DNA of 64,000 nt from a virus: positions 32,001 to 96,000 of the IMG/VR virus record IMGVR_UViG_3300025133_000040; one strand, written 5' to 3'. The position numbers and the translations under genes were made by a program. The number at the start of each line of letters is the position of its first letter. Position 1 is the stretch's first letter. Under the pieces are notes generated by a model that was not told where the DNA came from, did not search any database, and saw only the letters and a program-made list of their open reading frames with translations. Shown here one piece after another: positions 34,275-60,511 of this stretch.

Positions 34275-34348
34275 TAGGTTACCAGGGAGTCGAACCCTGC
34301 ACATCTGCCTTATAAGAGCAGCCTCCCCAACCGGAGGAGCCGTAACCC
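34275..34348 (-). tRNA. tRNA-Ile(UAU)
   Basis: cloverleaf; loop CTTATAA; GTTCGAC T-loop. Confidence 0.8.
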
Positions 34349-34354
34349 AAAATC

Positions 34355-34657
34355 TTATTCTTCTTCCATCTCTTTAAGTCTTAAGCACTCAGCGACAGGA
34401 CCATCGTAAAATTCCAAGTCAACGTCCAGGCTAGAGCACTTGTAGTTGCACATGTCGTCCATAGAAATCAGATAAGGACAATCACCACACCAAAGCTCGC
34501 CGCAAACGACTGCGCCCTCAGGCATGTTAATGTTCAAAACCTTGTCATAGCACTTCTTACATACGTCATACTCAATTGTCTTGTCCTTGGCTGGACAACG
34601 ACACTGGCCCATTAGTATTCCACATTGCTTGCAGACTGTTTTAATGTGTTCAGACAT
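34355..34657 (-). CDS. small Cys-rich protein
   Basis: multiple CxxC. Confidence 0.6.
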   Translation of the reverse strand: MSEHIKTVCKQCGILMGQCRCPAKDKTIEYDVCKKCYDKVLNINMPEGAVVCGELWCGDCPYLISMDDMCNYKCSSLDVDLEFYDGPVAECLRLKEMEEE

Positions 34658-34865
34658 TAGTCTGCCTATTTCAAAAGATGGACAATGTACATACGATAGC
34701 CTTTTTCGTCAACCCTAATTAGGGCGGTGCGTTGGCTGGCGCTTGGAATAGCCCCTACGGCTTCTCTCTTGGTGTCGTACTCAGCAGTACGAATACCTTT
34801 TCCACCGTTGGCTACAGTACGAACTTTGTACTTCATCGTTCTTCTCCGGTTAAAATCCTAGTGAG

Positions 34866-34935
34866 TACCAACGGAAGGAATTGAACCTTTCTCACAACGC
34901 CTTATGAAAGCGTGCTCCCGCCTCGGGTCGCTGGT
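34866..34935 (-). tRNA. tRNA-Met/Ile2(CAU)
   Basis: loop TTCATAA; short D-arm. Confidence 0.75.
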
Positions 34936-34939
34936 AAAG

Positions 34940-35021
34940 CAGCGGGTGAGGGAATCGAACTCTCGCGCCCTTACGACGACTGTTTTCAAGACAGTTTAGC
35001 ACGCCAACTGCAATACCCGCT
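34940..35021 (-). tRNA. tRNA-Ser(UGA)
   Basis: loop CTTGAAA; long variable arm; G73. Confidence 0.85.
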
Positions 35022-35025
35022 GTAG

Positions 35026-35097
35026 CTGGCCCCGAAGGATTTGCACCTTCGCGAAGACATTCAGAGTGTCTCATGCTACTGTTACATCAGGGACCAG
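35026..35097 (-). tRNA. tRNA-Gln(CUG)
   Basis: loop CTCTGAA; variant T-loop TGCAAAT. Confidence 0.8.
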
Positions 35098-35100
35098 TAA

Positions 35101-35684
35101 AAAAGAGAGCTTTAGCAGTTTATTCTCTCAGCTTGTGAGGTCAACCTGTTGGTTGACCACTACACGACCTATAACAGCCTTCGCAAGCTTCACCCCTGTC
35201 GTTGCAGCTTTAGACCGCACGCAACAGCACGTTAAATTAGTGGTAGTTGTTCTGGACTTGGTGATTGGTGGTTGCAGCCACCGAACCCCTCATTCGTAAA
35301 TCTTCAAAGCCTGGGAAGCCAATCCGATTTACCCCTTGCGGGCAGCGTCACCAACTTTCGCCGGTAACCGTAGGCACTTCCACCTACCACTATGGTATTT
35401 TATTTCCCAGATTCATATTAGCGATGAACCGATGACGTACATCAGGAAAACACCCAAAAACTATCGTTCCTTCAAGCAGACACTTGGGATGGCACCCACG
35501 CTCTTGCTGTTCAGCTACTAGGTGATTTCTGTAATGCCACTTACATACTCCACCACGCACCACGACACTGTTAGGGCGATGGTAAGCCCCTCCAACGTAC
35601 ACGCTTTCGTCTATGCTGCAAGCAGCTTGGTCACCCGTCATACCGAAAGGGTAAACCAGTTTAAAGTCCCGACGACAGTGGGAC
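35101..35684 (-). ncRNA. large structured RNA, ROOL-like (~580 nt)
   Basis: ~580-nt stretch between tRNAs with no credible ORF, dense hairpins (GGTTACCGGCGAAAGTTGGTGAC, GGTCAACC/GGTTGACC, TAGTGGTAG/CTACCACTA); size, context and remembered motifs fit ROOL. Confidence 0.55.
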
Positions 35685-35686
35685 AG

Positions 35687-35755
35687 AGCCTACATCCGGT
35701 GTCGAACCGGATAGTCGTCTTTACAAGAGACAACGCTGGAGCCGCCAGTGTAGGC
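35687..35755 (-). tRNA. tRNA-Thr(UGU), shortened D-arm
   Basis: loop CTTGTAA; ~69 nt. Confidence 0.75.
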
Positions 35756-35949
35756 TAATTTCGTTCTTCTTCTGGTCGCCAGTGCTCCCAGTTTATTTCA
35801 GTCCAACAATCGCTGTAGTCTTCCGTACAGCGTTCTTCCTCCGTATACTCGTTGTGACAATTAGGACACTCGCCACCGTTCCAGTCTTGTATTATTCCAA
35901 CCTCGTGCCCGCACCTTGGACAGTCTAGTTCATAATCAAATTCTTCCAT
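35755..35949 (-). CDS. small zinc-ribbon protein
   Basis: CPRC...CPNC. Confidence 0.6.
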   Translation of the reverse strand: MEEFDYELDCPRCGHEVGIIQDWNGGECPNCHNEYTEEERCTEDYSDCWTEINWEHWRPEEERN

Positions 35950-35981
35950 GTCACTTCCTTAGGTTTTGCGAAGCAAAACAG

Positions 35982-36048
35982 AGCCTTAGTTCGGAGTCGA
36001 ACCGAATTAGAAACATTACGAGTGTCTCTGTCCACCATGGACTAAGGC
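35982..36048 (-). tRNA. tRNA-Thr(CGU), shortened D-arm
   Basis: loop CTCGTAA; ~67 nt. Confidence 0.7.
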
Positions 36049-36056
36049 GACGTGAG

Positions 36057-36141
36057 CGGTTGGAACAGGAATCGAACCTGCAAGCCCCCGAAGGACTACT
36101 TACTTTCCAAGTAAGGTGCTCTGCCTATTAGCTACCCAACC
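36057..36141 (-). tRNA. tRNA-Ser(GGA)
   Basis: loop TTGGAAA; long variable arm. Confidence 0.85.
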
Positions 36142-36145
36142 AAAG

Positions 36146-36213
36146 TAGCTCGTGAGGGAGTCGAACCCACGCTATCGGATTAGGAATCCAATGCCCCATC
36201 CTCGGGACAAGCT
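36146..36213 (-). tRNA. tRNA-Arg(CCU), shortened D-arm
   Basis: loop TTCCTAA. Confidence 0.75.
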
Positions 36214-36218
36214 AAATT

Positions 36219-36350
36219 GCCCACTGTCGTGGGCTCTATCCACCACCGTGAATAGATAAAACCATTGATGCGTTGAGTCTGTCATACTGCGCATCTTTAT
36301 ACGACTCAACCCACATAAGTGACAGCTTACGGGTCTGGTTGTCGTGGTTT
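36219..36350 (-). ncRNA. candidate multiply pseudoknotted small RNA
   Basis: strand TGACAG-ACTCAAC-GCATC complements upstream CTGTCA, GTTGAGT, GATGC in crossing order; closed by AAACCA/TGGTTT. Confidence 0.45.
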
Positions 36351-36352
36351 AG

Positions 36353-36424
36353 TAGGCAATAAAGGAATCGAACCTTTGTTTTCTGCTTGTAAAACAGATG
36401 TACTGGCCATTGTACGAATCGCCC
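36353..36424 (-). tRNA. tRNA-Val(UAC)
   Basis: loop TTTACAA. Confidence 0.88.
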
Positions 36425-36666: not shown

Positions 36667-37293
36667 TTAGTGATACGAAGTCCCTTTGTCGTGGTGGTCT
36701 ACACTTTCAGGCTCTATGTGCCTCATGTACTCCACAATGTCATCCAGTAGCATTGGGGTGTACCTTTCAGAGTTAGGACCATGACAGTCCATGCCCACGT
36801 CCATCTGCCTGCCACAATCCCTAGTGTAGGTGCCATGACAGTGACCATATAGGTTGATAGACCCTCGACCTACCTCGTTCCACGACCCCAGAGGATAGTG
36901 ACCCATGGTAATCAGCTTCTTACCGTGTCTAAACTCTCGGTATCGTCTGATGGTGGAGAAATGCTTGGTGTGCGCCTCTCCCTTGAACTTACGATTCTCT
37001 GGGTCTAGAGTGTCGTCGTGGTTACCTAGTAACAGGTGAATCGTACGGCACTTGATTCGCGCACGCATCCCAGGAATGTCCCTCGGACCCATGGCGAAGT
37101 CGCCCAGGTGAATCAGGGTATCGCCCTCACCAACAACGCTGTTGATGTTGTCGATAATGGTGCTATCCATCTCGTCCACAGAAGCGAAGTCTCGGTAGCC
37201 CTTATCCCAGGAGGACAAAGCAGGCCCGCTGATATTTACATGGCCGAAGTGAGTATCGGCGGTTACAAAGATTTTATTCATTCTATTCTCCAT
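36667..37293 (-). CDS. calcineurin-like metallophosphoesterase
   Basis: DTHFGH, LGD, GNHD, HYP, GHCH. Confidence 0.92.
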   Translation of the reverse strand: MENRMNKIFVTADTHFGHVNISGPALSSWDKGYRDFASVDEMDSTIIDNINSVVGEGDTLIHLGDFAMGPRDIPGMRARIKCRTIHLLLGNHDDTLDPENRKFKGEAHTKHFSTIRRYREFRHGKKLITMGHYPLGSWNEVGRGSINLYGHCHGTYTRDCGRQMDVGMDCHGPNSERYTPMLLDDIVEYMRHIEPESVDHHDKGTSYH

Positions 37294-38323
37294 GCTTTAA
37301 AGCATACTTGTTGCTGATGACCTTGAAAGACAGGGGCTTTCCCAATACCTCGTTCCAGCCACCGCCATTAGCTAGGCGAACCACGATTCCTTCAGCGCGA
37401 CTGCCGTTAGCGTACTTGGTTTCGTCAGCTAGTTCTAGCAGGCCCTCTAGTGTCCAAGTAGGACACTCCTCGTCTGCTGGGCCTAGGTAGCACAGGTCTA
37501 CCATGGTAAGCTCATATTCCTCACAGAACTTTTTGGTCTGACGGTAGTTCAGAGTGTAGTCCTCTTCAATATCGAACACGTTGAATACCCTGAACTCAGG
37601 CTCTTTCAAGCCCTCTCGGTTGTTCTGAATACCAGGACCAACAATCTCACCCTGTACGACGCAGTTGTCGGGCAGAGCGGCAAGTGAATACTTTAAAGCC
37701 ATCCTACCGTAGACACCACCGTCAATCTTTAGCTCCATATTGCGTGAGCAAATACGAAAATGATTGTCTTCCATAATATAGGTAGCAGATGTACCGTCAT
37801 GCTTAACAGAGATATAGACTTCCTTACCCTGAATCTTTTCAATGAGAGAAGGTAGGTTCTGAATCCTTTCCTCGTCTGTCTTTGAGACCAAGTGAGTAGG
37901 GAAGTGACCAATAGCATCTGCTGACTGAGGTGCGGGCTTCTCGTACTTGAGCACTTCCAGTGCCTCGGTTACGTCGTCGCCTTCTGTTACTAGAGGTCGC
38001 ACAGGAACAGTCCAAGTTACTCCCTCGTCCTCAACTTCTTCTAATCTATCTAGAACAGATAACGGAAAACAAATTCCCTGTGAAACTACACCACGTAGCT
38101 TGATTGTCTTGACTCTGAACTGCTTGTTCCGAAGGAACTCAAACTCTGGTCGCTCTGGAAGGATAGAATCCAACGCCACGTAGACGCAGAGGTCACCCTC
38201 TTTGAACTCGCCCTTCTTGGCGACCACGGTCCAGCCTAGTACCTTGATTAGCTCTAGGCTATCAGCATTGTCATGTGGCAGTACAGAGGCCACCCTTTGA
38301 ATTGTTGCTAGTTTGTTACTCAT
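37283..38323 (-). CDS. RNA ligase, DRB0094/Rnl5 family
   Basis: N-terminal OB (HDNADSLE), KTDEERIQN, KHDGTS, QGE, EGIV, SFKVIS. Confidence 0.92.
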   Translation of the reverse strand: MSNKLATIQRVASVLPHDNADSLELIKVLGWTVVAKKGEFKEGDLCVYVALDSILPERPEFEFLRNKQFRVKTIKLRGVVSQGICFPLSVLDRLEEVEDEGVTWTVPVRPLVTEGDDVTEALEVLKYEKPAPQSADAIGHFPTHLVSKTDEERIQNLPSLIEKIQGKEVYISVKHDGTSATYIMEDNHFRICSRNMELKIDGGVYGRMALKYSLAALPDNCVVQGEIVGPGIQNNREGLKEPEFRVFNVFDIEEDYTLNYRQTKKFCEEYELTMVDLCYLGPADEECPTWTLEGLLELADETKYANGSRAEGIVVRLANGGGWNEVLGKPLSFKVISNKYALKHGE

Positions 38324-38735: not shown

Positions 38736-38744
38736 TGTACCACC

Positions 38745-38967: not shown

Positions 38968-39522
38968 CTACCTTTGATTGAGTTGGTTTATCTTATTTAA
39001 ACTAGGGAAGCTCATAGAAGCCGGTGGCTTCTCATTTTTATACTTAGCCACGAGCACCTTACGTGCTTCAATGTCTTTCAGCGTCTCTTGGAACCTCGCC
39101 TCTGATTCCTCTTGCCACTTCTTTCTCTTAGTAATTTTCTCGGGGCTATAAATCTTACGATATATAGGAAGCTCGTCAATAGACCCGAGAGGTACATAAG
39201 CCACTACCCACCAATACATTCCATCCTCGCTCTCAAGCATCAGAGAATAGCCATCTTCATCACGGCAAAAGTTATGGAACTCATTCCACCTTGTGTAGCT
39301 TTGCACCCAGTCACACGCTAGAAGTTCCTCAACGGTTTCAAACTCGAAAGTTTCTTTGTTGGACTCACTAACATCTACAAAATTAGGGTAGTGTTTCTTA
39401 GCCTTATGCACTGAGCACCTCCTCAATCTTACCCCTAATGGAAGACGTAGGCTCCCACTTGCTGTGCATGTTCTTAATGGTTTCAAGAGGCACACCGTGA
39501 GAAGTGTGGCCCACACACGCAA
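38968..39522 (-). CDS. hypothetical protein (true start probably near 39410)
   Basis: fills the gap after the kinase; 5' extension overlaps it. Confidence 0.5.
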   Translation of the reverse strand: MRVWATLLTVCLLKPLRTCTASGSLRLPLGVRLRRCSVHKAKKHYPNFVDVSESNKETFEFETVEELLACDWVQSYTRWNEFHNFCRDEDGYSLMLESEDGMYWWVVAYVPLGSIDELPIYRKIYSPEKITKRKKWQEESEARFQETLKDIEARKVLVAKYKNEKPPASMSFPSLNKINQLNQR

Positions 39523-39904
39523 TAGGGTCGTACCGCCAAGAGGTATCAGGCTCTAGCACTTCTACCTCGTAGCCGTACTTCTTAGCCAGCAACACGTAGG
39601 GCTTGATTTCCTTCCAAGTGATATTGGTGTTGTCAATAATCACCGTATTCGTAGGGGGTAGCACTTCGTCTACCATATACTCCTCGGCTCGTTCTTTGTT
39701 CCAGGCATGAGCCTCACCAATCCTTCGCATGTTGAAGTCGTAGTGCCCGTCAGGACGTAGCCAGTAGCTATCAGTAGAGCAGACGCGAGACGACCAGTTC
39801 ATGCTCACCCCTAGTTCGCCAGCAGTCGCACGTCTAAACTCGTTCACAGCGGTGCTCTTACCGCTTCCAGGTAAGCCCCTGGCAATAATTAATCGCTTCT
39901 TCAT
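39404..39904 (-). CDS. P-loop polynucleotide kinase-like protein (AAA_33/N4BP2-type)
   Basis: RGLPGSGKST, STD, IIDNTN, HGVP. Confidence 0.88.
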   Translation of the reverse strand: MKKRLIIARGLPGSGKSTAVNEFRRATAGELGVSMNWSSRVCSTDSYWLRPDGHYDFNMRRIGEAHAWNKERAEEYMVDEVLPPTNTVIIDNTNITWKEIKPYVLLAKKYGYEVEVLEPDTSWRYDPIACVGHTSHGVPLETIKNMHSKWEPTSSIRGKIEEVLSA

Positions 39905-39905
39905 T

Positions 39906-41012
39906 TTAGTTTTCCTTATCAGCCTGGGGCTTTACCATCTTCCAAATGGCCTCGGAGTAATCCTTGCCATCAATTATCATAAACACTAGGTTGCGGTACT
40001 TATAGTTGGTCATTCGCTGAGCAATAGCCTTGCGATTACCCTTATGCTTGGTCACCTCTAAGTACTTCGCCTTGGCCTCGGCCTCGATAGTGTCGTACTC
40101 AGCCTGGAAACCATTAGCCATGTCCATAACATAAGTATAGAACTCGTCCGGTACTTTGTCAAGCCACTTATTTAAATCTTGGTTGTGCCGAAGCTGTTCC
40201 CACACTCTCTTAGGGGTTACGCCCGTCATAATCTTGTGCAGCCTACAGTACTCGTCGAACTTAAACTTCATGCGGAAGTTCTTGAGCGTTGGGTAAACCA
40301 GGACGTAGCCCTCTTCGTTTTCAGGCTGGTCCAGAGTCTCCAACTGAGACAAGTAGTTCGCACCTTCTAAGGGCTCGATGGAATTCCAACCAGCCTTCTT
40401 AGCCTTCTCGAATAAGTCCCAGCGGTCCTGACCGTCCCAGTTTTCAGTGACAGCAAGTAGCCGTAGCTCCTCAGTGTCGCCGTAGTCTAGAACGATGCGG
40501 TTCTCTGGGTAGATAATTTCTACCAGATATGTACATTCGGTGTCACAACCTTCAAGAATCTCGTCGTAGTCACGTAGCATCTCACGACCCTTGTACGCCT
40601 GTGGAGACGCAAAGGAACCACGAGTAGCAATGTCCCACCGACCCTGCATTGGGCTGAAGAAGACCACGCCTAAGGAACCATCCATCTTTGGGTAAGCCTT
40701 GAAGGGCTCAGCATGGATGCGACCTAGGAATTCCTGGTACTTCATACCGTACAGGTGCTTGGTCCGGTTACGGATAACTGGAATCTCACCCACGTTGAAG
40801 AACTTGGTGAACGGTCGAGCAACAATGTTGTTGCGGTGGTCTAAGACCAAACCACGACACATCATGGTAGCTTCGTCCCACTTGGCTTCAATCTGAGTGT
40901 TCGTTGTGTAGTTATAGATAAAGAGCGTGTCTTTTGGGTGTTCACGTACGGATACGTAGCCCTGCGATACACGCTCCTGAATCTTTTCTAGTAAGTTGTT
41001 TTCAAGTCTCAT
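39906..41012 (-). CDS. T4 Rnl1-like RNA ligase
   Basis: IYNY, CRGL, PFTKFFN, KMDGS, ATRGSF, EGYV, MKFK. Confidence 0.92.
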   Translation of the reverse strand: MRLENNLLEKIQERVSQGYVSVREHPKDTLFIYNYTTNTQIEAKWDEATMMCRGLVLDHRNNIVARPFTKFFNVGEIPVIRNRTKHLYGMKYQEFLGRIHAEPFKAYPKMDGSLGVVFFSPMQGRWDIATRGSFASPQAYKGREMLRDYDEILEGCDTECTYLVEIIYPENRIVLDYGDTEELRLLAVTENWDGQDRWDLFEKAKKAGWNSIEPLEGANYLSQLETLDQPENEEGYVLVYPTLKNFRMKFKFDEYCRLHKIMTGVTPKRVWEQLRHNQDLNKWLDKVPDEFYTYVMDMANGFQAEYDTIEAEAKAKYLEVTKHKGNRKAIAQRMTNYKYRNLVFMIIDGKDYSEAIWKMVKPQADKEN

Positions 41013-41022
41013 AACTTCATCC

Positions 41023-41385
41023 TTATAACCAGGGCTTCTCACCCATCTTTACCCGAACATCATTACCTATCTTGCGAGAGTATTCAATCATCTGTTTGGT
41101 TCCACGGCTTTTACCGTCCCAAAACGCAACAGTAGCATCGGCATAGTCTGCCATCTCAATGTTGCGTAGTATTCCAGCCTTCTTTCCTAGGCCATCCCAG
41201 TCTGCGGGACATCTCTTGACCGCAATCCCTCTTTCGTTGGCCCACTTCTCCCCTAGTGTATCTGCCCCTCTAGCACAACCGCAAACTACTTCTGTAACAT
41301 TGCCGTTTGTGTTGAGGTAATCCATACAACTAGAAAGATAATCATAGTCTTTAAAATCTCTGGAACCTACTATTGCCACTCGCAT
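41023..41385 (-). CDS. SLOG-family (DUF2493/YspA-like) protein
   Basis: IVGSR, GCARGAD, AG..RN, FWDGKSRGT. Confidence 0.88.
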   Translation of the reverse strand: MRVAIVGSRDFKDYDYLSSCMDYLNTNGNVTEVVCGCARGADTLGEKWANERGIAVKRCPADWDGLGKKAGILRNIEMADYADATVAFWDGKSRGTKQMIEYSRKIGNDVRVKMGEKPWL

Positions 41386-41398: not shown

Positions 41399-41986
41399 TT
41401 AAAATTGAATCCTGTTCATCTTGTTCTGTTCTACGTGTGCATCATACAGCGTGTTGTAGTTAAACACCCTGCCAACGTCGTCGTACGCTTGTCTCATTTG
41501 ATTGGCGCATTTTCTCGGCGTCATCCTGCCAGTAGCAGTACATAGCCCTGGACATAGGATGCTTTGAATTTCGTTGAAATCCTCGTCAAAACTTAGAGCA
41601 GCACGAAATGCTAGGTAGGCATTGATTGTATTACTAACATCCTCTGGGACTCTCATAGTTGGAGCACAGATAAGATGAGGTAATGCACAGCCAAGCGTTG
41701 GAACAATCATAGCTTCGCCCACTAGAAGCTCTCCGTTGACAAGAGACCTTAACTCATGTTGTAGTCTAACCTGTAGGTCCGTACCAAAGTAGTTGGTGTA
41801 CACTTGGTCGATGCCACCGTCCATAAACCCGAAGGAATTAGCTGGGCTAATCACAGCGTCGGCATCCATGTGTTCGCCTGGGGCAAAAATCTTACCGTGG
41901 CTAATGTGTACGTTGTCACAACCTTTGAACGCTCTCGTCCACTCAGCTACTAGGCTGAGGTTTAAGTCTCTAAGATAAATTTCCAT
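41399..41986 (-). CDS. macrodomain (ADP-ribose processing) protein
   Basis: DAVISPANSFGFMDGGID, APTMRVP, PGLCT. Confidence 0.9.
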   Translation of the reverse strand: MEIYLRDLNLSLVAEWTRAFKGCDNVHISHGKIFAPGEHMDADAVISPANSFGFMDGGIDQVYTNYFGTDLQVRLQHELRSLVNGELLVGEAMIVPTLGCALPHLICAPTMRVPEDVSNTINAYLAFRAALSFDEDFNEIQSILCPGLCTATGRMTPRKCANQMRQAYDDVGRVFNYNTLYDAHVEQNKMNRIQF

Positions 41987-43300: not shown

Positions 43301-43304
43301 GTTT

Positions 43305-46110: not shown

Positions 46111-46113
46111 AAG

Positions 46114-49340: not shown

Positions 49341-49375
49341 TCTTTTGTTGGCTCTATCATAGAAATTATCATAAG

Positions 49376-52728: not shown

Positions 52729-52800
52729 CTCATTTTGTAAAAAAAATTTTTTGACGATTTGGTTTAAACGGCTACTTTTAGAGCTTCGCTCTTAAATAAA

Positions 52801-53065: not shown

Positions 53066-53093
53066 AGTATACACTAGAACGGGCTGGAGTCAA
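53066..53093 (-). promoter_or_regulatory. conserved promoter of the RNase P-like RNA
   Basis: TTGACT-N16-TATACT. Confidence 0.8.
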
Positions 53094-53126: not shown

Positions 53127-53132
53127 CTTAAG

Positions 53133-53205
53133 AGCAGTTAGAGGGAGTCGAACCCGTCGTCTAAGCATCGGCAATGCCTTGTAATGACCGTTATACGATA
53201 ACTGC
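53133..53205 (-). tRNA. tRNA-Gly(GCC)
   Basis: loop TTGCCGA. Confidence 0.82.
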
Positions 53206-53209
53206 TTAG

Positions 53210-53280
53210 TAGGCCATAATGGAATCGAACCATCGTCATCTGCACGTCAAGCAGATATTCTACCATTGAAATAATGGCCC
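53210..53280 (-). tRNA. tRNA-Val(GAC)
   Basis: loop TTGACGT. Confidence 0.85.
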
Positions 53281-53284
53281 AAAG

Positions 53285-53356
53285 TGCGACTGCTCGGTAC
53301 TGCCCCGAGTTCTCTGAGTTGGAAGCCCAGCGTTCTACTATTTCTACTACAATCGC
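53285..53356 (-). tRNA. tRNA-Gly(UCC)
   Basis: loop CTTCCAA; variant T-loop GGCAGTA. Confidence 0.75.
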
Positions 53357-53368
53357 GTGGTTAATCTT

Positions 53369-53515
53369 TTATCTAGCTCTATATGTCGTAGTTTCACCAC
53401 AAGACCGACACCTGAAAAACGTCCTAAACTCAGACGACGGCGAAATGTCAACCATGTTAAAAGAATTACAGTCCTTGCAGACCGGAATAAACTTTCTTAG
53501 CAGTTTATAAAACAT
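53369..53515 (-). CDS. 48-aa zinc-ribbon protein (not in ORF track)
   Basis: AGGAAAG RBS; MFYKLLRKFIPVCKDC...CRSCGETTTYRAR. Confidence 0.55.
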   Translation of the reverse strand: MFYKLLRKFIPVCKDCNSFNMVDISPSSEFRTFFRCRSCGETTTYRAR

Positions 53516-53533
53516 ATCTTTCCTTTCCTTAAG

Positions 53534-53605
53534 TGGGTCGCCGGGGAGTCGAACCCCGTCCTATTTCGTTAAGAGCGAAAAATGCAACCATTACACCTGC
53601 AACCC
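53534..53605 (-). tRNA. tRNA-Lys(CUU)
   Basis: loop CTCTTAA. Confidence 0.88.
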
Positions 53606-53609
53606 AAAG

Positions 53610-53680
53610 AGCCTCTGACTGGAATCGAACCAGTGTTTTCTCGATACCAACGAGATGCACTACCATTGTACTACAGAGGC
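53610..53680 (-). tRNA. tRNA-Thr(GGU)
   Basis: loop TTGGTAT. Confidence 0.88.
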
Positions 53681-53685
53681 TTAAG

Positions 53686-53757
53686 TACCCCGCCTCGGAA
53701 TCGAACCGAGTCCTAACTGGTTAAAAGCCAGCAATGCTACCATGACACTCACAGGGC
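53686..53757 (-). tRNA. tRNA-Lys(UUU)
   Basis: loop CTTTTAA. Confidence 0.85.
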
Positions 53758-53767: not shown

Positions 53768-53919
53768 GGGTCAATGAGACTATAATCACCATGAGTAATC
53801 TTTTGTTGTCGTACTCACAACGTCCGTTGGACGATTTACGCCTCCGAAGAGAACTCCTGCCAGGGAGTCGATTAACAACGTGTCCACCTACCAAGTAGGT
53901 AATCACTCGCGACTGCAAT
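53768..53919 (-). ncRNA. candidate multi-stem ncRNA
   Basis: GAGTGATT/GATTACTC enclosing ACCTAC/GTAGGT, ACTCC/GGAGT, a TTCG hairpin and CGTCC/GGACG. Confidence 0.4.
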
Positions 53920-53924
53920 ATTTA

Positions 53925-54600
53925 AGAGCCTGCGTTAGCTCTATCTAAACAACTACTCAACCGCATCCATTAACTCTGCCTTGCGAGCAGTTCAACTCCG
54001 CTAGGAGTTTAGTCGCTTTCCTCGATTAACTTGATTGACCTTGCGAGTCGCCCAAGTCAGTATTACCCCGAAGGGCTACCGAATTAAGTCGCTTTCGTTG
54101 TCTAGTGTGTCAGGACTTTTGCTTTGGTTAAAAATACAGGAATCGAACCCATACAGATTGTTTGATACAACAATTGCCCTACCGTTAGGCTAATTTTCAT
54201 TTGGCGAGAGACGTGCTGACACAGTTGCTCCATATCCTTTTGGGATGCAGAATACAACACGCCTCTCTGTACAGAGTCTTGCGGACTCTTATACCGTAGT
54301 TCAAGAGAAGGTGTGCCCCCTCTCTCTCATACTACCACATCCCACTTGTTTGCAGCTTGCAGAATGTAGTTACTGTTCCTTCCTCAGAAGTAAACTGTTA
54401 AATCCCTATCCCAGGCTATCACCTCTGGGAAGTAGTCGATAGTGTTACCCTCGTGCTACTTTCAGGCAGTCGTTCTTCCTATTGCCCATTACAGGACAAC
54501 AAGGAAAGGTCAGCTTGAATGAATGGACTCTTACGAGCGACAGCTTGCCACGCTGCCTTTGGGGAGATTGCTCTCCTTACCCTAATGACTTCATACAGCC
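53925..54600 (-). ncRNA. GOLLD-like large RNA with embedded tRNA-like element
   Basis: GTGTTGTATTCTGCATCCCAAAAGGATATGGAGCAAC..GCACG domain, GCAAAAGT, repeated GAAAGCGACT and CTCGCAAGG; lies inside the tRNA array; family from remembered consensus. Confidence 0.6.
54125..54199 (-). other. tRNA-like element with 8-nt aberrant anticodon loop and encoded CCA
   Basis: normal acceptor/D/T arms; loop TGTATCAA. Confidence 0.65.
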
Positions 54601-54671: not shown

Positions 54672-54741
54672 GTATCACTGATTCGTCCAGGCTGGCTCAG
54701 TGAAAGCCTTTTTAAATTCAACCGCCGCTGGCGGTGAACAG

Positions 54742-54814
54742 TGGACACAAAGGGAATCGAACCCTACACAACCGCATTGCAAGTGCAGTTCGCCCCCTTG
54801 GAACATGTGCGCCC
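54742..54814 (-). tRNA. tRNA-Ala(UGC)
   Basis: G3-U70; loop CTTGCAA. Confidence 0.85.
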
Positions 54815-55192
54815 TTAGTTTAGCACCCTGTCCAGCCACCAGTGCCAGTCAGGAAACTCTTCGTATAACTCGTATCTACACAGTATTCGCTCTCGAATAT
54901 CTGTGTTCCACATTGCTACAGTAACGTCCATCCAGTGCTTTCCAACAGCGTAGCCGTTGTACTTGTCGCCTGTCTGTTGGAATAACCCGAGTCTGAGGTC
55001 TCCCTCGCCACGAGATTCCCAGAGGAACATCGCAACCGCAGCGTCGTCGGAAAAGTCTAACACCTCAGACTCACCAGCGAAGTACTGGTAAATAGGCTGT
55101 ATCCTTCTCCATTTCGTTGACGGCTTCGCCATCAACTCAACAACTTCTATGCCCGCAGGCACAATCAACCTCAGAGACAGACCACGCTTCAC
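54815..55192 (-). CDS. hypothetical protein
   Basis: ORF in tRNA array; start probably at MAKP. Confidence 0.55.
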   Translation of the reverse strand: MKRGLSLRLIVPAGIEVVELMAKPSTKWRRIQPIYQYFAGESEVLDFSDDAAVAMFLWESRGEGDLRLGLFQQTGDKYNGYAVGKHWMDVTVAMWNTDIRERILCRYELYEEFPDWHWWLDRVLN

Positions 55193-55439
55193 GCCTTCCT
55201 AGCTTGATAACTTCATTGATTTTCTCAGACTCTACGATGCAACAAGCCATAAACCAAGCCTGAAACGCACCTTCGTCGTCCTTGAAAGCATATGCCATCT
55301 TAGCACACCGCTTAGCAAAGGCTTGAACATCATCTGTTCTCGCTGAAAAATCTGTCTCTGTCAGCAACTCAATCATTGCTCCACCTTTATTCGGTGAAGA
55401 GTTGTCGCTGTGAATATATGTCTCTATAAGTCCAGGCAT
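55137..55439 (-). CDS. hypothetical protein
   Basis: ORF in tRNA array. Confidence 0.5.
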   Translation of the reverse strand: MPGLIETYIHSDNSSPNKGGAMIELLTETDFSARTDDVQAFAKRCAKMAYAFKDDEGAFQAWFMACCIVESEKINEVIKLGRREAWSVSEVDCACGHRSC

Positions 55440-55448
55440 TAGGCCACC

Positions 55449-55616
55449 TTAAATCCAATCGTGATATTCCCGCTTTCCTGTGTACCCGCTGTATTCCCAA
55501 TTGCATGTCAAGCACTTCTCCCAGTCGCCAGAGCTATCACGCTCGTGCTCGGAGTCGATACATTGCTGCATCGTTGTCTCTTCACAGTTTTCGCAGTATC
55601 GTTCATCATAATACAT
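55449..55616 (-). CDS. small zinc-ribbon protein
   Basis: CENC...CLTC; start trimmed to avoid the tRNA. Confidence 0.55.
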   Translation of the reverse strand: MYYDERYCENCEETTMQQCIDSEHERDSSGDWEKCLTCNWEYSGYTGKREYHDWI

Positions 55617-55619
55617 AAG

Positions 55620-55690
55620 TAGTCTTCCAGGGAGTCGAACCCCGCCAATCACCTTATCAGGGTGAGTCGCTCAACCAGAGCGCGAAGACC
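55620..55690 (-). tRNA. tRNA-Ile(GAU)
   Basis: loop CTGATAA. Confidence 0.82.
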
Positions 55691-55691
55691 A

Positions 55692-55779
55692 TGGGGGAAG
55701 GCTGGGGATTTGAACCCACATTCTCCCATATGATAGCTTGTATCACAGGGCGCATTAACCACATATGCTATGCCCGACC
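55692..55779 (-). other. tRNA-like element with elongated anticodon arm and encoded CCA
   Basis: D and T arms normal; CCC-TGTGATA-CAAGC-TATCATA-TGGG replaces the anticodon arm. Confidence 0.6.
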
Positions 55780-55784
55780 AAAAG

Positions 55785-55857
55785 GGTGATATGAGGGGGT
55801 TGAACCCTACTCTTCCTCGTTCACAGCGAGGCGTGCGACCGCTACACTAATACCACC
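55785..55857 (-). tRNA. tRNA-His(GUG)
   Basis: loop CTGTGAA; G-1:C73. Confidence 0.88.
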
Positions 55858-55863
55858 ATAAAG

Positions 55864-55933
55864 CAGGCTGTTGAGGAGTCGAACCCCATTCATTCGGGTT
55901 GGAACCGAAGACCTCTCCCAGGAGGAACAGCCT
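55864..55933 (-). tRNA. tRNA-Trp(CCA)
   Basis: loop TTCCAAC; G73. Confidence 0.8.
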
Positions 55934-55943
55934 GTGATACTTC

Positions 55944-56300
55944 CTAATTAGGAAGCACTAATTTGTTTCCTGGTACAGCGATTTGAGGCTTCTCAAACAC
56001 CATAGCCAAGTACATCTCTTCAATTTCTTCAATTGGTTTTCCGCTTTGCAGGACGTGCTCAGTGGAAATGTCAATTCTATCTTCTTCTGTCCTCAACAGA
56101 GGAAACGGCTTAGCGAGCGCCGGTCCCTGCTCTGTCTCAATGAACTGATAAGCATACTTAAGCCTTATCCGTCCCTGTGTTTTACCACCGTCGTCCACGC
56201 CAATAATGTCGTGCCCAGCTAGTGTCTTGACATATACTAAACTGTTTTCAACTTCAGTATAACTAGGCTTCTTTACTTGCGTATCCTCTGGCATCTGCAC
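55944..56300 (-). CDS. hypothetical protein (Sm-like fold possible)
   Basis: VKTLAGHDIIG N-terminus; tail IAVPGNKLVLP. Confidence 0.55.
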   Translation of the reverse strand: MQMPEDTQVKKPSYTEVENSLVYVKTLAGHDIIGVDDGGKTQGRIRLKYAYQFIETEQGPALAKPFPLLRTEEDRIDISTEHVLQSGKPIEEIEEMYLAMVFEKPQIAVPGNKLVLPN

Positions 56301-56434
56301 TTCCTTTGTCGTAATCGACCTGTGATGTATCCTGTTAGTCCAATGCCACTAGCGAAGCTTAGTAACATAATTTCAAAAAACCCACCACAAATACATGATA
56401 GTAACATTAGTTAAAGTCCTTGTGTTGAGCTTAG

Positions 56435-56506
56435 TAGCGCGACGGGGAATTGAACCCCGGTCTCAAGGTTGAAAACCTAGTATCCTAACCACTAGACGAC
56501 CGCGCC
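56435..56506 (-). tRNA. tRNA-Glu(UUC)
   Basis: loop TTTTCAA. Confidence 0.9.
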
Positions 56507-56517
56507 TTACTTCTTTA

Positions 56518-56545
56518 ATTATACACCTAAGTCGGCTGGAGTCAA
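56518..56545 (-). promoter_or_regulatory. conserved promoter of tRNA operon
   Basis: TTGACT-N16-TATAAT. Confidence 0.8.
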
Positions 56546-56762
56546 GTCTTCACTTAAAAGAATTTTCTTAACTGCGTCGGCCAACTCAAGGCCCGTCTCT
56601 TTTCTCTCAGCATCCTCCGCAAGCAACTCACCCTTAAGGTGACCATCACAATAACACTCGTAAGCAAACTCGCTGTAGTCCTTTGGTTGAGTCATAAGCT
56701 CCTTACCAAACACCCCATGAGTAAGACCCGTCATCGTATAGCTTAGCTTCTGCTTCTTCATT
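56519..56762 (-). CDS. hypothetical protein
   Basis: ORF from MKKQK. Confidence 0.5.
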
Positions 56763-56786
56763 GCTTTCCCTTTCCTGTGCCTCAAG

Positions 56787-56858
56787 TAACCCATCTCAGA
56801 ATCGAACTGAGTCTTAAAGGTTCAAAACCTCGCGTGCGAACCATTACACTAATGGGTA
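56787..56858 (-). tRNA. tRNA-Gln(UUG)
   Basis: loop TTTTGAA. Confidence 0.82.
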
Positions 56859-56871
56859 GTAATGCTACAAG

Positions 56872-56945
56872 TAAGAGCGGTGGGAATCGAACCCACACTA
56901 TACGGAATTTAAACCCGCTCCCTCTTCCATTTGGGGCACGCTCTC
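56872..56945 (-). tRNA. tRNA-Leu(UAA), short variable loop
   Basis: loop TTTAAAT; 5-nt variable region. Confidence 0.78.
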
Positions 56946-56946
56946 A

Positions 56947-57016
56947 TGGCAGTCGCAAATGGTCTCTCACCACTATCTCCCCTGGCCTGGGGCATTTTGC
57001 TTTAAACTACACGACT
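56947..57016 (-). other. tRNA-like element with aberrant anticodon arm and encoded CCA
   Basis: AGTCGTG/TGCGACT-G-CCA; CCCC-AGGCCA-GGGG arm; T-loop TGAGAGA. Confidence 0.55.
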
Positions 57017-57020
57017 AAAG

Positions 57021-57092
57021 TAGGGACAGTTGGACTCGCACCAACAACCTCTGGCTTTTGAAACCAGTGCTCTACTATTTGGCTATGCCCCC
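57021..57092 (-). tRNA. tRNA-Leu(CAA), short variable loop
   Basis: loop TTCAAAA; T-loop TGCGAGT. Confidence 0.78.
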
Positions 57093-57097
57093 TTAAG

Positions 57098-57169
57098 TAG
57101 TGACGGCGGGACTCGCACCCGCAACCTCCTGTTCCTAAAACAGGTGCTCTACTATTTGGCTACGTCACC
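57098..57169 (-). tRNA. tRNA-Leu(UAG), short variable loop
   Basis: loop TTTAGGA; T-loop TGCGAGT. Confidence 0.78.
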
Positions 57170-57176
57170 ATAATTA

Positions 57177-57245
57177 TAACACTACAGGATTCGAGACCTG
57201 CACCTCCTCCGCTCATGGAGACGAACCTCAATTAGTCTAAGTGCC
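57177..57245 (-). pseudogene. degenerate tRNA (possibly Leu-GAG)
   Basis: 6-nt loop ATGAGC; irregular T-loop and D-arm. Confidence 0.45.
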
Positions 57246-57251
57246 ATAAAG

Positions 57252-57323
57252 CTGCCGCTGCGGGAGTTGCACCCACATTTCCCTGATGTTTGTCAGGTTG
57301 CCCTACTGTTGGACGAAGCGACA
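57252..57323 (-). other. tRNA-like element with 6-nt loop CAAACA
   Basis: paired acceptor, D and T arms; no U33-type anticodon loop. Confidence 0.55.
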
Positions 57324-57328
57324 TCAAA

Positions 57329-57438
57329 GCAACTCTGTACCATCCCAACATACGCTTTCGCAAGACAGACTACAGGAAGGTGGTAAGCCGTATCCTGCGT
57401 ACTTTTCATCTCATCACGCCGTATGCGGGCAAAGCCGC
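57329..57438 (-). ncRNA. candidate long imperfect hairpin RNA
   Basis: GCGGCTTTG/CAGAGTTGC, CATACG/CGTATG, GCAGGA/TCCTGT. Confidence 0.35.
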
Positions 57439-57441
57439 AAG

Positions 57442-57514
57442 CTCTCAGTCCAGGTAACGCTCCTGGCAACATCTGGTTAACAGCCAGCGCCGTTCACTTG
57501 CTCGGTCACTGAGA
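57442..57514 (-). tRNA. tRNA-Asn(GUU)
   Basis: loop CTGTTAA; G73; variant T-loop AGCGTTA. Confidence 0.78.
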
Positions 57515-58847: not shown

Positions 58848-58916
58848 TTTGACCGCAGGAATCGAACCTGCCCCTCCTACTACGAGCAGGCGTGCTACCA
58901 CCATACACTTGGTCGC
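58848..58916 (-). pseudogene. degenerate tRNA-like element
   Basis: D and T arms present; shortened anticodon arm CCTGCTCGTAGTAGG; partial acceptor. Confidence 0.5.
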
Positions 58917-58918
58917 AG

Positions 58919-58990
58919 TAGGGTATCGGAGAGTCGAACTCCGCGCTCCCTGCTCCCAAAGCAGGTGTCACACCCCGCGACTTATACCCT
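58919..58990 (-). tRNA. tRNA-Pro(UGG)
   Basis: loop TTTGGGA. Confidence 0.82.
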
Positions 58991-58994
58991 AGAC

Positions 58995-59252
58995 TTATCT
59001 TTTACTAACAGATGGGCCATAAACCCCTCCGCTAATCCTCCAAAGTTTCTTAGCCTTTCTTAAGGAGGTAGCAAATTCATCAGCTTCTTCCTTTGTTGGA
59101 AAAGCTTCTACTTCTTTATTTAGTTCTCCAAGAACCCCATAATTACAAAACCAAATCGACCCCCAAGTTACATACCAAAGTTGAATTGCTTCAACCGTGT
59201 GTGTTTCATTGGAGACCAAGGTCTCAATCTTTTTCTTCTTAAACGGCCACAT
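58995..59252 (-). CDS. hypothetical protein
   Basis: ORF from MWPFKKK with AAGG RBS. Confidence 0.6.
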   Translation of the reverse strand: MWPFKKKKIETLVSNETHTVEAIQLWYVTWGSIWFCNYGVLGELNKEVEAFPTKEEADEFATSLRKAKKLWRISGGVYGPSVSKR

Positions 59253-59301
59253 AGCAACCTTTCTTTCCTGTTTCAAATTCCTAGGTGAGCAAAGCTCACA
59301 G

Positions 59302-59386
59302 TGAGAAGTAAGGGAATCGAACCCCCTGCCGCCACCGCACATATTAATGGCCAGTGGGCTACAACCACCGATGCGGAATACCTCTC
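59302..59386 (-). tRNA. tRNA-Tyr(GUA) lacking a D-stem
   Basis: loop TTGTAGC; 10-nt D-replacement CCGCAT complementary to GTGCGG in the enlarged variable arm. Confidence 0.7.
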
Positions 59387-59396
59387 ATGTTTTGCC

Positions 59397-59514
59397 AATA
59401 GTTACCGTCCACGGTTCTCTAGTAACTATTTATTCCTGATGATTCAGAGCAACCCGAACCAGCTCTCAGCCTTTATCAGCGAACTTTCATAACTACCTAC
59501 CGTCAGCAGTTATT
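59397..59514 (-). ncRNA. candidate structured RNA
   Basis: ATAACTGC/GTAGTTAT, CTGAT/ATCAG junction, AATAGTTAC/GTAACTATT. Confidence 0.35.
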
Positions 59515-59523
59515 ACAAGCAAG

Positions 59524-59596
59524 CCACCTAGACGGGAGTCGAACCCGCAACGCTCCGGTAGACAACCGGACCCCATTACCGTATGGGCTCTAGGCG
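59524..59596 (-). tRNA. tRNA-Asp(GUC)
   Basis: loop TTGTCTA; G73. Confidence 0.82.
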
Positions 59597-59620
59597 AAAT
59601 AAGTGAGCGTTAGCTCACAG

Positions 59621-59692
59621 TAGGCAACCAGGGAATCGAACCCCATCCGATGCGTCCGAAGCGCATTGTGCTATCCATCACACCCGTCACCC
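59621..59692 (-). tRNA. tRNA-Arg(UCG)
   Basis: loop CTTCGGA. Confidence 0.82.
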
Positions 59693-59696
59693 AAAG

Positions 59697-59769
59697 TGGT
59701 GCCCTAGGGAATCGAACCCTACTACGCCGAACTTCAACCGGCTGCCGTCACCAGATTAGCTAGGACACC
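59697..59769 (-). tRNA. tRNA-Phe(GAA)
   Basis: loop TTGAAGT. Confidence 0.85.
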
Positions 59770-59788
59770 ATAATATTCATGTTCAAAC

Positions 59789-60028
59789 TTACCCATGACC
59801 ATTACTGTCCTCTTGCAAGGACTTGTAATGTTCTTTACTCTTTTTCTGCCAAAAGGACACTTGGCCTACCGCAATCGGAAAGAAGTCATAGACTTCAACC
59901 AAGTTCTCGTAGGTAAAATGGGCATATGAAGGAAACTCACTACCCATAGGTCTGTAGACCCCGCCGTGTTCCTCAACATACTCAAAAATACAGCTATCAT
60001 CAGGTCTCACTAAGTATCTCGCCTTCAT
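59789..60028 (-). CDS. hypothetical protein
   Basis: ORF in tRNA array. Confidence 0.55.
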   Translation of the reverse strand: MKARYLVRPDDSCIFEYVEEHGGVYRPMGSEFPSYAHFTYENLVEVYDFFPIAVGQVSFWQKKSKEHYKSLQEDSNGHG

Positions 60029-60374
60029 TGGATGGTCTCACCCTCATGCCCAGTAATTGCAGGCATAAACGCTCTTGCAAGCTCAGCTCGCCGTTCTGCC
60101 CAATCATCTTTAGACTTGCTAAAAACAGCCATTAAGCTATCTGCACACTCCAAAGCCAACTCAAACGCATCTACTGAACCATCGCTCATACATATTTTCC
60201 TTTTATGTTATAGCTAAGGCACCTTCGTTAGGGTGCTAAAATGAAAAAAGCGTCACCAATTATGCTGCGCGGAGGTCCGTACCCTTATCGGCCCCATTAT
60301 CATTACCATGATAAAAGGCGAGACGTTCGGGTTTTTGGGCCAACGGCCATAAATTGATTAAAGTATTCATAGAG

Positions 60375-60446
60375 CATCCGGTAGGGGAGTCGAACCCCTG
60401 TCCGCTGATAGAGAATCAGCTATCCTAGCCACTAGACGAACCGGAC
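60375..60446 (-). tRNA. tRNA-Glu(CUC)
   Basis: loop TTCTCTA. Confidence 0.88.
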
Positions 60447-60483
60447 AAAAGTGAGGAGAAGCTTTCTTCTCCTGACTATTATA

Positions 60484-60511
60484 AGTATACACCCAAAACG
60501 CCTGGAGTCAA
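60484..60511 (-). promoter_or_regulatory. conserved promoter of tRNA operon
   Basis: TTGACT-N16-TATACT. Confidence 0.8.

Follow-up and report, generated by a model that had tools for sequence, protein, structure and literature searches.

tRNA genes, tRNA-repair enzymes and a circularly permuted RNase P-like RNA gene in an uncultured marine phage

A 64,000-nucleotide stretch of viral DNA (bases 32001-96000 of the 111,831-bp IMG/VR virus record IMGVR_UViG_3300025133_000040; the stretch is called the window and the record G000 below) was analyzed, focusing on the region between positions 34275 and 60511, in which transfer RNA (tRNA) genes are interleaved with genes for a ribonuclease P (RNase P)-like RNA, a CCA-adding enzyme, RNA ligases, a kinase and phosphoesterases. 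We favour, with a probability of roughly 0.6, the reading that this region of a large marine phage is a modular island, not a closed pathway, which aids translation and opposes the defences of the host. It is best read as relying on the host for transcription, the RnpA protein, trimming of 3' ends, modification and also charging. What is new is a phage-encoded RNase P gene with rotated element order, the invariant N-C-U ends of the tRNA genes and a 590-nt RNA outside the classified families; on the protein side the biology is known. The complementary parts listed in the initial annotation of this DNA, namely tRNA genes, a ribozyme for the 5' end, a CCA enzyme for the 3' end, and enzymes for healing and sealing, were all found.

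The record derives from an uncultured marine phage and comprises 112 kb, with a CheckV completeness of 74%; the genome is estimated at ~150 kb and is thus not that of a jumbo phage. Every gene of the 34.2-60.5 kb region is carried on the minus strand. The stretch 51900-54800 recurs near word for word in marine metagenome runs of several independent studies, and in one marine-metagenome run from 2017 a single contig of 8,296 nt spans 52763-53400 with two differences. The arrangement around the RNase P gene is therefore not an assembly artefact of one sample. A megablast search of 36600-52800 against deposited phage genomes gave no match.

Identification of the permuted RNase P RNA

The RNase P-like RNA that the initial annotation had named is real, as judged from a rotated two-piece profile match and from covariation of helix P2 in all eight RNAs compared. 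From its sequence and predicted helices, it is a genuine, conserved, circularly permuted derivative of the miniature type-A RNase P RNAs of phages, and a predicted ribozyme. Relatives were found by exact-word scans of IMG/VR with the P4 strands of the candidate. Six miniature RNase P RNAs of normal element order, 250-298 nt in length, were detected in phage contigs, each in or beside a tRNA array, and two of them lie in complete jumbo-phage records with direct terminal repeats (358 and 488 kb). All six match positions 1-367 of the Rfam model RF00010 with E values of 3e-20 to 1e-13 and 53-73 bits (gathering score 100). The Rfam search of 52720-53135 (416 nt) gave no RNase P match at the gathering threshold or at E<=10, and simple motif searches with the E. 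coli sequences of conserved regions (CR) I and V gave chance-level results. Because a covariance model cannot align a rotated RNA, a profile of the six normal-order relatives was used instead, and nhmmer placed it in the window twice, with profile positions 18-214 at 53021-52817 (E 1e-8) and positions 193-241 at 53076-53030 (E 8e-4). The end of the model lies upstream of its start in the window and the gene order is therefore rotated, while profile positions 1-17 and 242-254, which form P1, have no counterpart.

The elements of the window RNA follow each other, from 5' to 3', as the 5' strand of a terminal helix (53053-53048), J2/4 with the P4 3' strand (53046-53033), the P2 5' strand (53027-53021), the P3 hairpin (53019-53001), CR-I with the P4 5' strand and its bulged U (53000-52986), a reduced specificity domain, P15/16 with GGGUU (~52933-52887), P18 with a GAAA loop (52838-52827), CR-IV (52826-52817), the P2 3' strand (52817-52811), the terminal helix 3' strand (52810-52805) and a T-run. 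The catalytic-core sequences ACAGAACCCUGGCU, GAGGAcAAGUUCAGGG and UAGACGAAUG (CR-I, CR-IV and CR-V) are present, and P4 consists of eight pairs around the bulged U, as in bacterial RNase P. The specificity domain is of a size similar to that of the normal-order relative L009, in which 15 + 15 + 110 consensus positions left unprinted by Rfam are filled by 14 + 11 + 26 nt. In the 5' leader AGAC-ATG-AGACGAA is retained, which resembles CR-IV/P2'.

When the six normal-order sequences were rotated by script, all eight RNAs, including the window RNA and a second permuted copy found in the related phage G001 (L003), could be aligned over their full length. P2 is formed by 6-7 Watson-Crick pairs in 8/8 RNAs, with six different sequences, and in the permuted RNAs its 3' strand stands at the extreme 3' end, 210 and 420 nt from the partner strand. 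The permuted pair carries a linker of ~5 nt in place of the P1 hairpin of the normal forms. The helices were verified in both permuted RNAs, and L003 keeps the same element order despite two insertions of ~65 and ~190 nt. CR-I and CR-V are identical between the two, CR-IV is near-identical (CAGATTAATG against TAGACGAATG), and P2, P3 and P18 show compensatory changes. The terminal helix, which joins the 5' leader to the 3' tail, is entirely different in sequence and yet pairs in both (GACTAAG/CTTAGTC in L003 against CGAATT/GATTCG in the window RNA). The sole polymorphism inside the RNA, in the independent 2017 contig, turns an A-U pair of P2 into G-U.

More permuted copies were searched for in IMG/VR with the pattern ACAGAACCC...GAGGA..AGTYC, and all 31 loci obtained except L003 were chance or coding matches. 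A scan of metagenomes recovered only a near-identical strain (L179) and a close relative (L178) cut by its contig end, and the evidence of covariation among permuted RNAs thus comes from two lineages. In L178 (71-145) P3 is expanded, being replaced by two hairpins, and the flanking core is identical to that of the window RNA; P3 thus appears to be a hot spot for variation. RnpA (PF00825) was detected neither in this record nor in the seven other phage records that hold an RNase P RNA, so that a host protein, or action without protein, would be needed.

tRNA genes and their 3' ends

Between 34274 and 60446 ARAGORN identified 30 tRNA genes, each of them on the minus strand, and a 31st, found by Rfam only (53285-53356), folds as Gly-UCC with a non-canonical T-loop. 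Under a relaxed ARAGORN threshold seven further tRNA-shaped elements appeared (total up to 38), several with 6-nt anticodon loops or non-canonical T-loops. Where 34 intact tRNAs had originally been counted, 31 genes are robust. The coverage of 19 amino acids was not reproduced: the robust set covers 16, or 17 when a marginal Asn element is counted, and Met, Cys and Tyr are missing. tRNAs for these three amino acids are present in the relatives G001 and G008.

The statement that the tRNA genes lack an encoded CCA was upheld, with 29 of the 30 ARAGORN genes ending in discriminator-C-T. The same N73-C74-T75 end was found in 33 of 34 genes in G001 and in 33 of 35 in G008, and it extends to the transfer-messenger RNA (tmRNA) genes of G000 and G001. 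The sole encoded CCA of this phage lies in a non-decoding tRNA-like insert within the GOLLD RNA. A boundary fixed in this way, tmRNA included, suggests that a recognition signal for the 3' end or for RNase P, or a processing constraint, is shared. C74 is fixed in all three phages (G001 loci L141-L147; G008 loci L190-L195), and the CCA-less phage L007 mixes C and T at this position. Adjacent tRNAs are often separated by just 3-5 nt (C-T-T-T or C-T-T-A-A); one cut at a 5' end therefore also sets a short trailer on the preceding tRNA.

Divergent tRNAs are common in the set: at E<=1 Rfam gave no match for four ARAGORN genes, several others score just 26-33 bits, and five are 68-71 nt long with short D-arms. 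It is plausible that the kit would permit oddly shaped tRNAs, as the initial annotation proposed: short D-arms or non-canonical T-loops occur in several of them, and the ribozyme has nearly lost its specificity domain. Bacterial tRNA-Leu normally has a long variable arm. The three tRNAs with Leu anticodons in the window (UAA, CAA and UAG; 56871-57169) are 73-75 nt long with a variable loop of 5 nt; the same was observed in G001 (92895-93292), and both short and 86-nt forms occur in G008.

Distribution among related phages

The three phages compared are G000, G001 and G008, with CheckV completeness of 74%, 84% and 79%, respectively. G001 is collinear with G000, and the aligned blocks are just 65-70% identical. 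Arrays hold 30, 34 and 35 tRNA genes with N-C-T ends in G000, G001 and G008, and a tmRNA, an Rnl1-type ligase, a kinase and a metallophosphoesterase are present in each; only these five components are common to all three. The permuted RNase P RNA was found in G000 and G001 and was not detectable in G008 (nhmmer E>1). The CCA enzyme is present in G000 and G008 (71% identical) and absent from G001, where the interval syntenic to the CCA block of G000 is just ~1 kb. The NgrRnl-type ligase, Macro, R2K and SLOG genes and the GOLLD RNA were found in G000 only, and the ~590-nt RNA occurs in G000 and G008 but not in G001. Absences from G001 and G008 are not certain, because the records are incomplete.

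Co-occurrence of RNase P RNA, CCA enzyme and tRNAs, which had been proposed as a test of the system, failed in part, the outcome that was to count against it: the N-C-T tRNAs are present in all three phages, and G001 has the RNase P RNA without the CCA enzyme while G008 has the reverse. Since the same CCA-less ends are kept in G001 without a CCA enzyme and in G008 without a detectable RNase P RNA, neither phage part appears to be required. Of the seven further phages that carry an RNase P RNA, 3/7 have a CCA enzyme, 2/7 have Rnl1 and 2/7 have GOLLD. With such patchy occurrence, both across the relatives and across the other RNase P phages, the components are separable modules. Moreover, the tRNAs of five of the six phages with a normal-order RNase P RNA encode CCA, and the RNase P RNA is therefore tied to tRNA arrays and not to CCA-less genes or to a CCA enzyme.

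Proposed mechanism and alternative explanations

In the proposed mechanism, the ribozyme would take the normal catalytic core, with the P4 3' strand at the 5' end of the RNA pairing with CR-I ~45 nt downstream, P2 closing between nucleotide ~33 and the 3' end, and the new terminal helix replacing P1. The ribozyme and host RnpA would probably cut the 5' leaders, and where tRNAs are 3-5 nt apart the same cut would leave a C-U-U-type trailer on the upstream tRNA, to be trimmed by host nucleases before a CCA enzyme, of the phage or of the host, completes the 3' end. The kinase, the phosphoesterase and Rnl1 may reseal tRNAs that anticodon nucleases of the host have cut. The modules would give capacity and robustness, and each could be lost. 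As a doubtful extension of this scheme, an active permuted, P1-less ribozyme might read C74-U75 of the phage pre-tRNAs and pre-tmRNA through the L15 GGGUU (C-G plus U-G pairs) and so process CCA-less, odd-shaped tRNAs before CCA addition; if true, the phage would possess a maturation route that persists when host RNase P is limiting or shut down.

Several observations weigh against a modular island with a processing ribozyme. The window ribozyme falls below every Rfam threshold, carries an extra C in J3/4 and has almost lost its specificity domain. G008 lacks a detectable RNase P RNA and G001 lacks a CCA enzyme, the same kind of tRNA genes being present in both, so that neither part appears indispensable. 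All three records compared are incomplete by CheckV estimate, and many neighbouring open reading frames (ORFs) are unrelated to tRNA, so that co-location may merely reflect an accessory-gene region. A minority contig (~6% of local depth, two metagenome runs) was also observed to join 52858 to 52983, skipping 124 nt (52859-52982) of the RNase P gene; it may represent a deletion or come from a relative.

The point on an accessory-gene region could be carried further, the tRNAs serving mainly to fit phage codon usage to the differing tRNA pool of the host and the repair and maturation genes being functionally unlinked passengers of an ordinary accessory region. The patchy co-occurrence in the relatives and in the other RNase P phages, the interleaved unrelated ORFs and a promoter type used throughout the window agree with this explanation. 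We regard it as unlikely, as Rnl1 and the kinase are adjacent and both are kept with the phosphoesterase in three relatives, every phage RNase P RNA found sits in or beside a tRNA array, and the N-C-T rule reaches the tmRNA, which points to a shared processing constraint. At the other extreme stands the self-contained whole tRNA life cycle claimed in the initial annotation, that is, a closed and orthogonal pathway in which CCA-less, short-D-arm tRNAs that host enzymes handle poorly would need the phage RNase P and CCA enzyme, both specialised for them. The invariance of the N-C-T ends, the divergence of the tRNAs by Rfam score, the short D-arms of some and the Leu tRNAs without a long variable arm are in its favour, together with a ribozyme that lacks most of its tRNA-elbow-reading domain and retains the L15 GGGUU, which could pair with C74-U75. 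This claim was not sustained and we consider it improbable: the same tRNA ends occur in the two relatives, in G001 without a CCA enzyme and in G008 without a detectable RNase P RNA, CCA is encoded by 5/6 of the other phages with a miniature RNase P, the promoters are of host type, RnpA is absent from the eight records, no metallo-beta-lactamase/RNase Z-type (Lactamase_B_2) match was obtained in this record, and no synthetase was seen in the ORFs scanned.

It is quite improbable that the RNase P-like RNA is not a tRNA processor at all and acts instead as a decoy for host RnpA, starving host tRNA maturation, or as a regulatory RNA, or persists as a decaying remnant of a tandem duplication. A partial tandem duplication could give the rotated order, and the AGAC-ATG-AGACGAA remnant in the 5' leader, the lack of an Rfam match, the absence from G008 and the minor variant that skips 124 nt would fit such explanations. 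However, P1 is cleanly swapped for the ~5-nt linker with no leftover P1 strands or spacer, and the RNA has its own promoter and T-run. CR-I, CR-V and the P4 bulged U are identical, and CR-IV near-identical, in two phages whose collinear blocks share just 65-70% identity, while P2, P3, P18 and the terminal helix differ in sequence and still pair; a decoy would have no need of catalytic-core nucleotides. The modular island, with its probable dependence on the host, accommodates these observations best.

Comparison with known systems

Phage tRNA arrays and repair enzymes are textbook counter-defence equipment, and in phage T4 Pnkp and Rnl1 repair tRNA cut by the PrrC anticodon nuclease, some T4 tRNAs being without CCA. 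The region resembles T4 in its tRNA cluster, kinase, 3' end-healing activity and Rnl1-type ligase. It differs in that kinase and phosphatase are separate and the phosphatase is of calcineurin type, not the HAD domain of T4 Pnkp, and in that ~31 tRNAs are present versus 8 in T4. To our knowledge, T4 encodes no RNase P RNA and depends on the RNase P of its host.

Every protein family of the toolkit is on the list given by a survey of jumbo phages, in which tRNA arrays, Rnl1/Rnl2, kinases, phosphoesterases, a CCA-adding enzyme, Macro, 2H, YAcAr-SLOG and R2K ATP-grasp were described as counter-defence equipment (Iyer et al. 2021, PMC7824862); RNase P is mentioned 0 times in that paper. Unlike the jumbo phages surveyed, the present phage has a genome of an estimated ~150 kb, and it carries a ribozyme and two large structured RNAs in addition.

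The window RNA shares with bacterial type A RNase P RNA (RF00010; E. coli M1) the P4 bulged U, J3/4 GAGGA..AG, J2/4 ACAGAA, J18/2 AGAcGAAUG, P2, P3, P15/16 with GGGUU and P18 with a GNRA loop. It differs from it in being rotated, with the break between P2' and J2/4, in the ~5-nt linker for P1 and the new terminal helix, in its length (~260 nt vs ~370 nt) and in the near loss of the P7-P14 specificity domain, which reads the T/D-loop elbow of the tRNA. Cleavage of pre-tRNA survives loss of most of the specificity domain or moved ends in the type T RNA of Pyrobaculum and in engineered permuted or minimal RNase P RNAs. The type T RNA, unlike the window RNA, is archaeal and not permuted, and the only permuted RNase P RNAs we know of so far were made in the laboratory. 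No paper describing an RNase P RNA encoded by a phage or permuted in nature was found in a literature search, and RNase P has, as far as we know, hitherto been treated as strictly cellular and borrowed by phages.

The island and the six normal-order relatives indicate that reduced RNase P ribozyme genes are carried by large phages themselves and that the gene was rotated in at least one lineage. If active, the window RNA would be among the smallest RNase P RNAs of bacterial type. It would then also offer a natural experiment on circular permutation of RNA and a way to learn which host contributions the maturation of phage tRNAs requires. The N-C-U ends in ~100 tRNA and tmRNA genes of three phages lead to a simple hypothesis on 3'-end recognition. 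The relatives set a limit, in that they reveal exchangeable modules and not one co-inherited machine.

Protein genes and other features

The coordinates of the features and the supporting matches are listed in Table 1. The CCA nucleotidyltransferase, the two RNA ligases and the kinase expected from the initial annotation were all recovered by database matches. One of the two phosphoesterases expected, the metallophosphoesterase, was recovered as well, and the other, a 2H protein, scores 21.9 bits, under the Pfam cut-off of 27.

Table 1. Features of the tRNA region and related loci. Positions refer to the window unless a record or locus name precedes them; (-), minus strand
Feature	Position	Evidence and remarks
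tRNA cluster 1: Ile-UAU, Ser-UGA, Gln-CUG, Thr-UGU, Thr-CGU, Ser-GGA, Arg-CCU, Val-UAC	34274..36424 (-)	ARAGORN and Rfam; several short D-arms (68-70 nt); N-C-T ends
Unclassified structured RNA, ~590 nt	35097..35685 (-)	Between tRNA-Thr(UGU) and tRNA-Gln(CUG); ends in hairpin and T-run
Calcineurin-like metallophosphoesterase	36667..37293 (-)	Pfam PF00149, 25.3 bits vs cut-off 21.5; 46% identity in G001, 52% in G008
NgrRnl-type (Rnl5) RNA ligase	37283..38323 (-)	PF21189 (105 bits) and PF09414 (70 bits); phrog_968 at 2e-69
P-loop polynucleotide kinase, T4 Pnk kinase-domain-like	39404..39904 (-)	166 aa; PF13671, 43 bits; directly downstream of Rnl1; kept in G001 and G008
Rnl1-type (T4 RnlA-like) tRNA ligase	39906..41042 (-)	PF09511, 59.8 vs 28.3 bits; phrog_562 at 3.9e-61, full length
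Accessory block, SLOG/YAcAr	41023..41385 (-)	Pfam
Accessory block, Macro	41399..41986 (-)	Pfam
Accessory block, R2K ATP-grasp	41986..42918 (-)	Pfam
Accessory block, weak 2H phosphoesterase	42923..43330 (-)	Pfam
tRNA-Ser(GCU)	46113..46202 (-)	ARAGORN and Rfam; directly downstream of CCA enzyme gene
Truncated class II CCA-adding enzyme	46309..46992 (-)	227 aa, head and neck only; PF01743 and PF12627; phrog_2244 and phrog_24229 at ~1e-50
tRNA-Arg(ACG)	49375..49444 (-)	ARAGORN; 70 nt, short D-arm
Circularly permuted miniature type-A RNase P RNA without P1 (putative ribozyme)	~52800..53059 (-)	~260 nt; profile nhmmer, rotated alignment, covariation
Promoter of the RNase P RNA, TTGACT-N16-TATACT	53066..53093 (-)	Follows closely on the terminator hairpin (53129-53110) of the tRNA unit upstream
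tRNA cluster 2: Gly-GCC, Val-GAC, Gly-UCC (Rfam only), Lys-CUU, Thr-GGU, Lys-UUU	53132..53757 (-)	ARAGORN and Rfam
GOLLD RNA, Rfam core	53774..54267 (-)	RF02032, 171.1 bits vs gathering 150, model 1-416
tRNA clusters 3 and 4: Ala, Ile-GAU, His, Trp, Glu-UUC, Gln-UUG, Leu-UAA, Leu-CAA, Leu-UAG, with small ORFs between	54741..57169 (-)	ARAGORN and Rfam
Three marginal tRNA-shaped elements	57175..57514 (-)	Relaxed ARAGORN only; no Rfam tRNA match at E<=1
tRNA cluster 5: Pro, Asp, Arg-UCG, Phe, Glu-CUC	58918..60446 (-)	ARAGORN and Rfam
tmRNA	G000:C1:98083-98437 (-)	~2.1 kb past the window end; Rfam RF00023, 119 bits
Normal-order RNase P RNAs	L004:9176-9433, L007:2370-2619, L009:5643-5907, L015:1723-1975, L019:1305-1602, L113:5460-5711	IMG/VR

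Alignment of the CCA enzyme with the Bacillus enzyme 1MIV (404 aa; E 6e-30) covers residues 22-225 of the latter, and the CCA enzyme has no body and tail domains. Its motifs A, B and D are intact, as GGYVRD..DID (consensus GGxVRD...DxD), RRDFTMNA and EDYLRILRAIRF (consensus EDxxRxxRAxRF), respectively, and a family of short phage CCA enzymes exists (phrog_24229, profile length 245). Rnl1 shares 53% identity with its homologue in G001 and 37% with that in G008. The kinase has T4 polynucleotide kinase as its only solved relative (1LY1 and 1LTQ, kinase residues 2-141, E 3e-4, a weak and specific match); it has no HAD phosphatase domain, and a separate metallophosphoesterase gene is present instead. 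From its family, the metallophosphoesterase is a candidate healer of 2',3'-cyclic phosphate or 3'-phosphate ends. The NgrRnl-type ligase, a relative of the nick-sealing RNA ligase of Naegleria, has an N-terminal OB domain followed by a nucleotidyltransferase domain and matches PDB 5COT over its full length (2.5e-42, residues 3-344).

The accessory block is specific to this phage, and just the 2H-like protein has homologues in G001 and G008, at other positions. Interleaved ORFs unrelated to tRNA include a glycosyltransferase, a GNAT protein, a sulfotransferase, a primase-like fragment, a radical-SAM/SPASM protein and unknowns. Two conserved ORFs, likewise unrelated to tRNA, gave leads in Protein Atlas, weak and papain-like for 49722-50699 and Ig/PKD-like for 51064-51810. 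The radical-SAM/SPASM gene (57569-58528, minus strand) lies inside the tRNA array with its own promoter (57566-57539) and is absent from G001 and G008; its product could be an RNA- or peptide-modifying enzyme.

Large structured RNAs

Large ornate RNAs had been noted in the region, and two were obtained, GOLLD and the ~590-nt RNA; the ROOL-like label attached to the latter was dropped. The ~590-nt RNA is 77% identical over 590 nt to positions 48630-49205 of G008, where it likewise follows tRNA-Thr(UGU), and its indels are not multiples of three. The RNAalifold consensus contains 175 pairs, of which 32 have compensatory double changes, with GNRA loops, and the folding z-score is -2.5. On this comparative and folding evidence, the element is a real large structured RNA that belongs to no classified family. 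It matched no Rfam family even at E 10, and blastn of 35097-35685 against deposited phage genomes gave no match. An identity as ROOL was rejected, with no ROOL match at E<=10 (35090-35690) or at E<=1 (33000-62000). A counterpart was observed at L196:3976-4580, and the RNA is kept in the G008 group. In G001, tRNA-Thr(UGU) and tRNA-Gln(CUG) are adjacent.

GOLLD is known for enclosing a tRNA-like element. The present copy agrees with known GOLLD RNAs in scoring above the gathering threshold, in its location in a phage tRNA region and in enclosing such an element (54125-54199). It is unusual in that this insert has a 6-nt anticodon loop and an encoded CCA, which no other tRNA-shaped element of the phage possesses. 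ORF-poor sequence extends from GOLLD to ~54600.

Promoters and minor elements

The single promoter type described for the tRNAs was confirmed, with 13 copies of TTGACY-N16-TATAMT in the window, often with TG in front, all on the minus strand versus 0.01 expected. It is not specific to tRNAs and is used window-wide: 7/13 copies lie within or at the edge of 34275-60511, one of them immediately before the RNase P-like RNA, and of the other six, five are upstream of the region and one just beyond it. By their motif, these promoters look like the general host-type, sigma-70-like signal of the phage.

The tmRNA of G000, scored at 119 bits by Rfam, was missed by the tmRNA mode of ARAGORN; tmRNAs were also observed in G001 and G008, the latter with a long repeated tag. 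Among the marginal tRNA-shaped elements, 57441-57514 is Asn-GUU-like with a non-canonical T-loop. The adjoining elements 57175-57247 and 57251-57323, directly downstream of tRNA-Leu(UAG), have 6-nt anticodon loops and are unable to decode normally, and an element similar to this pair was observed in G001 at 100056-100126.

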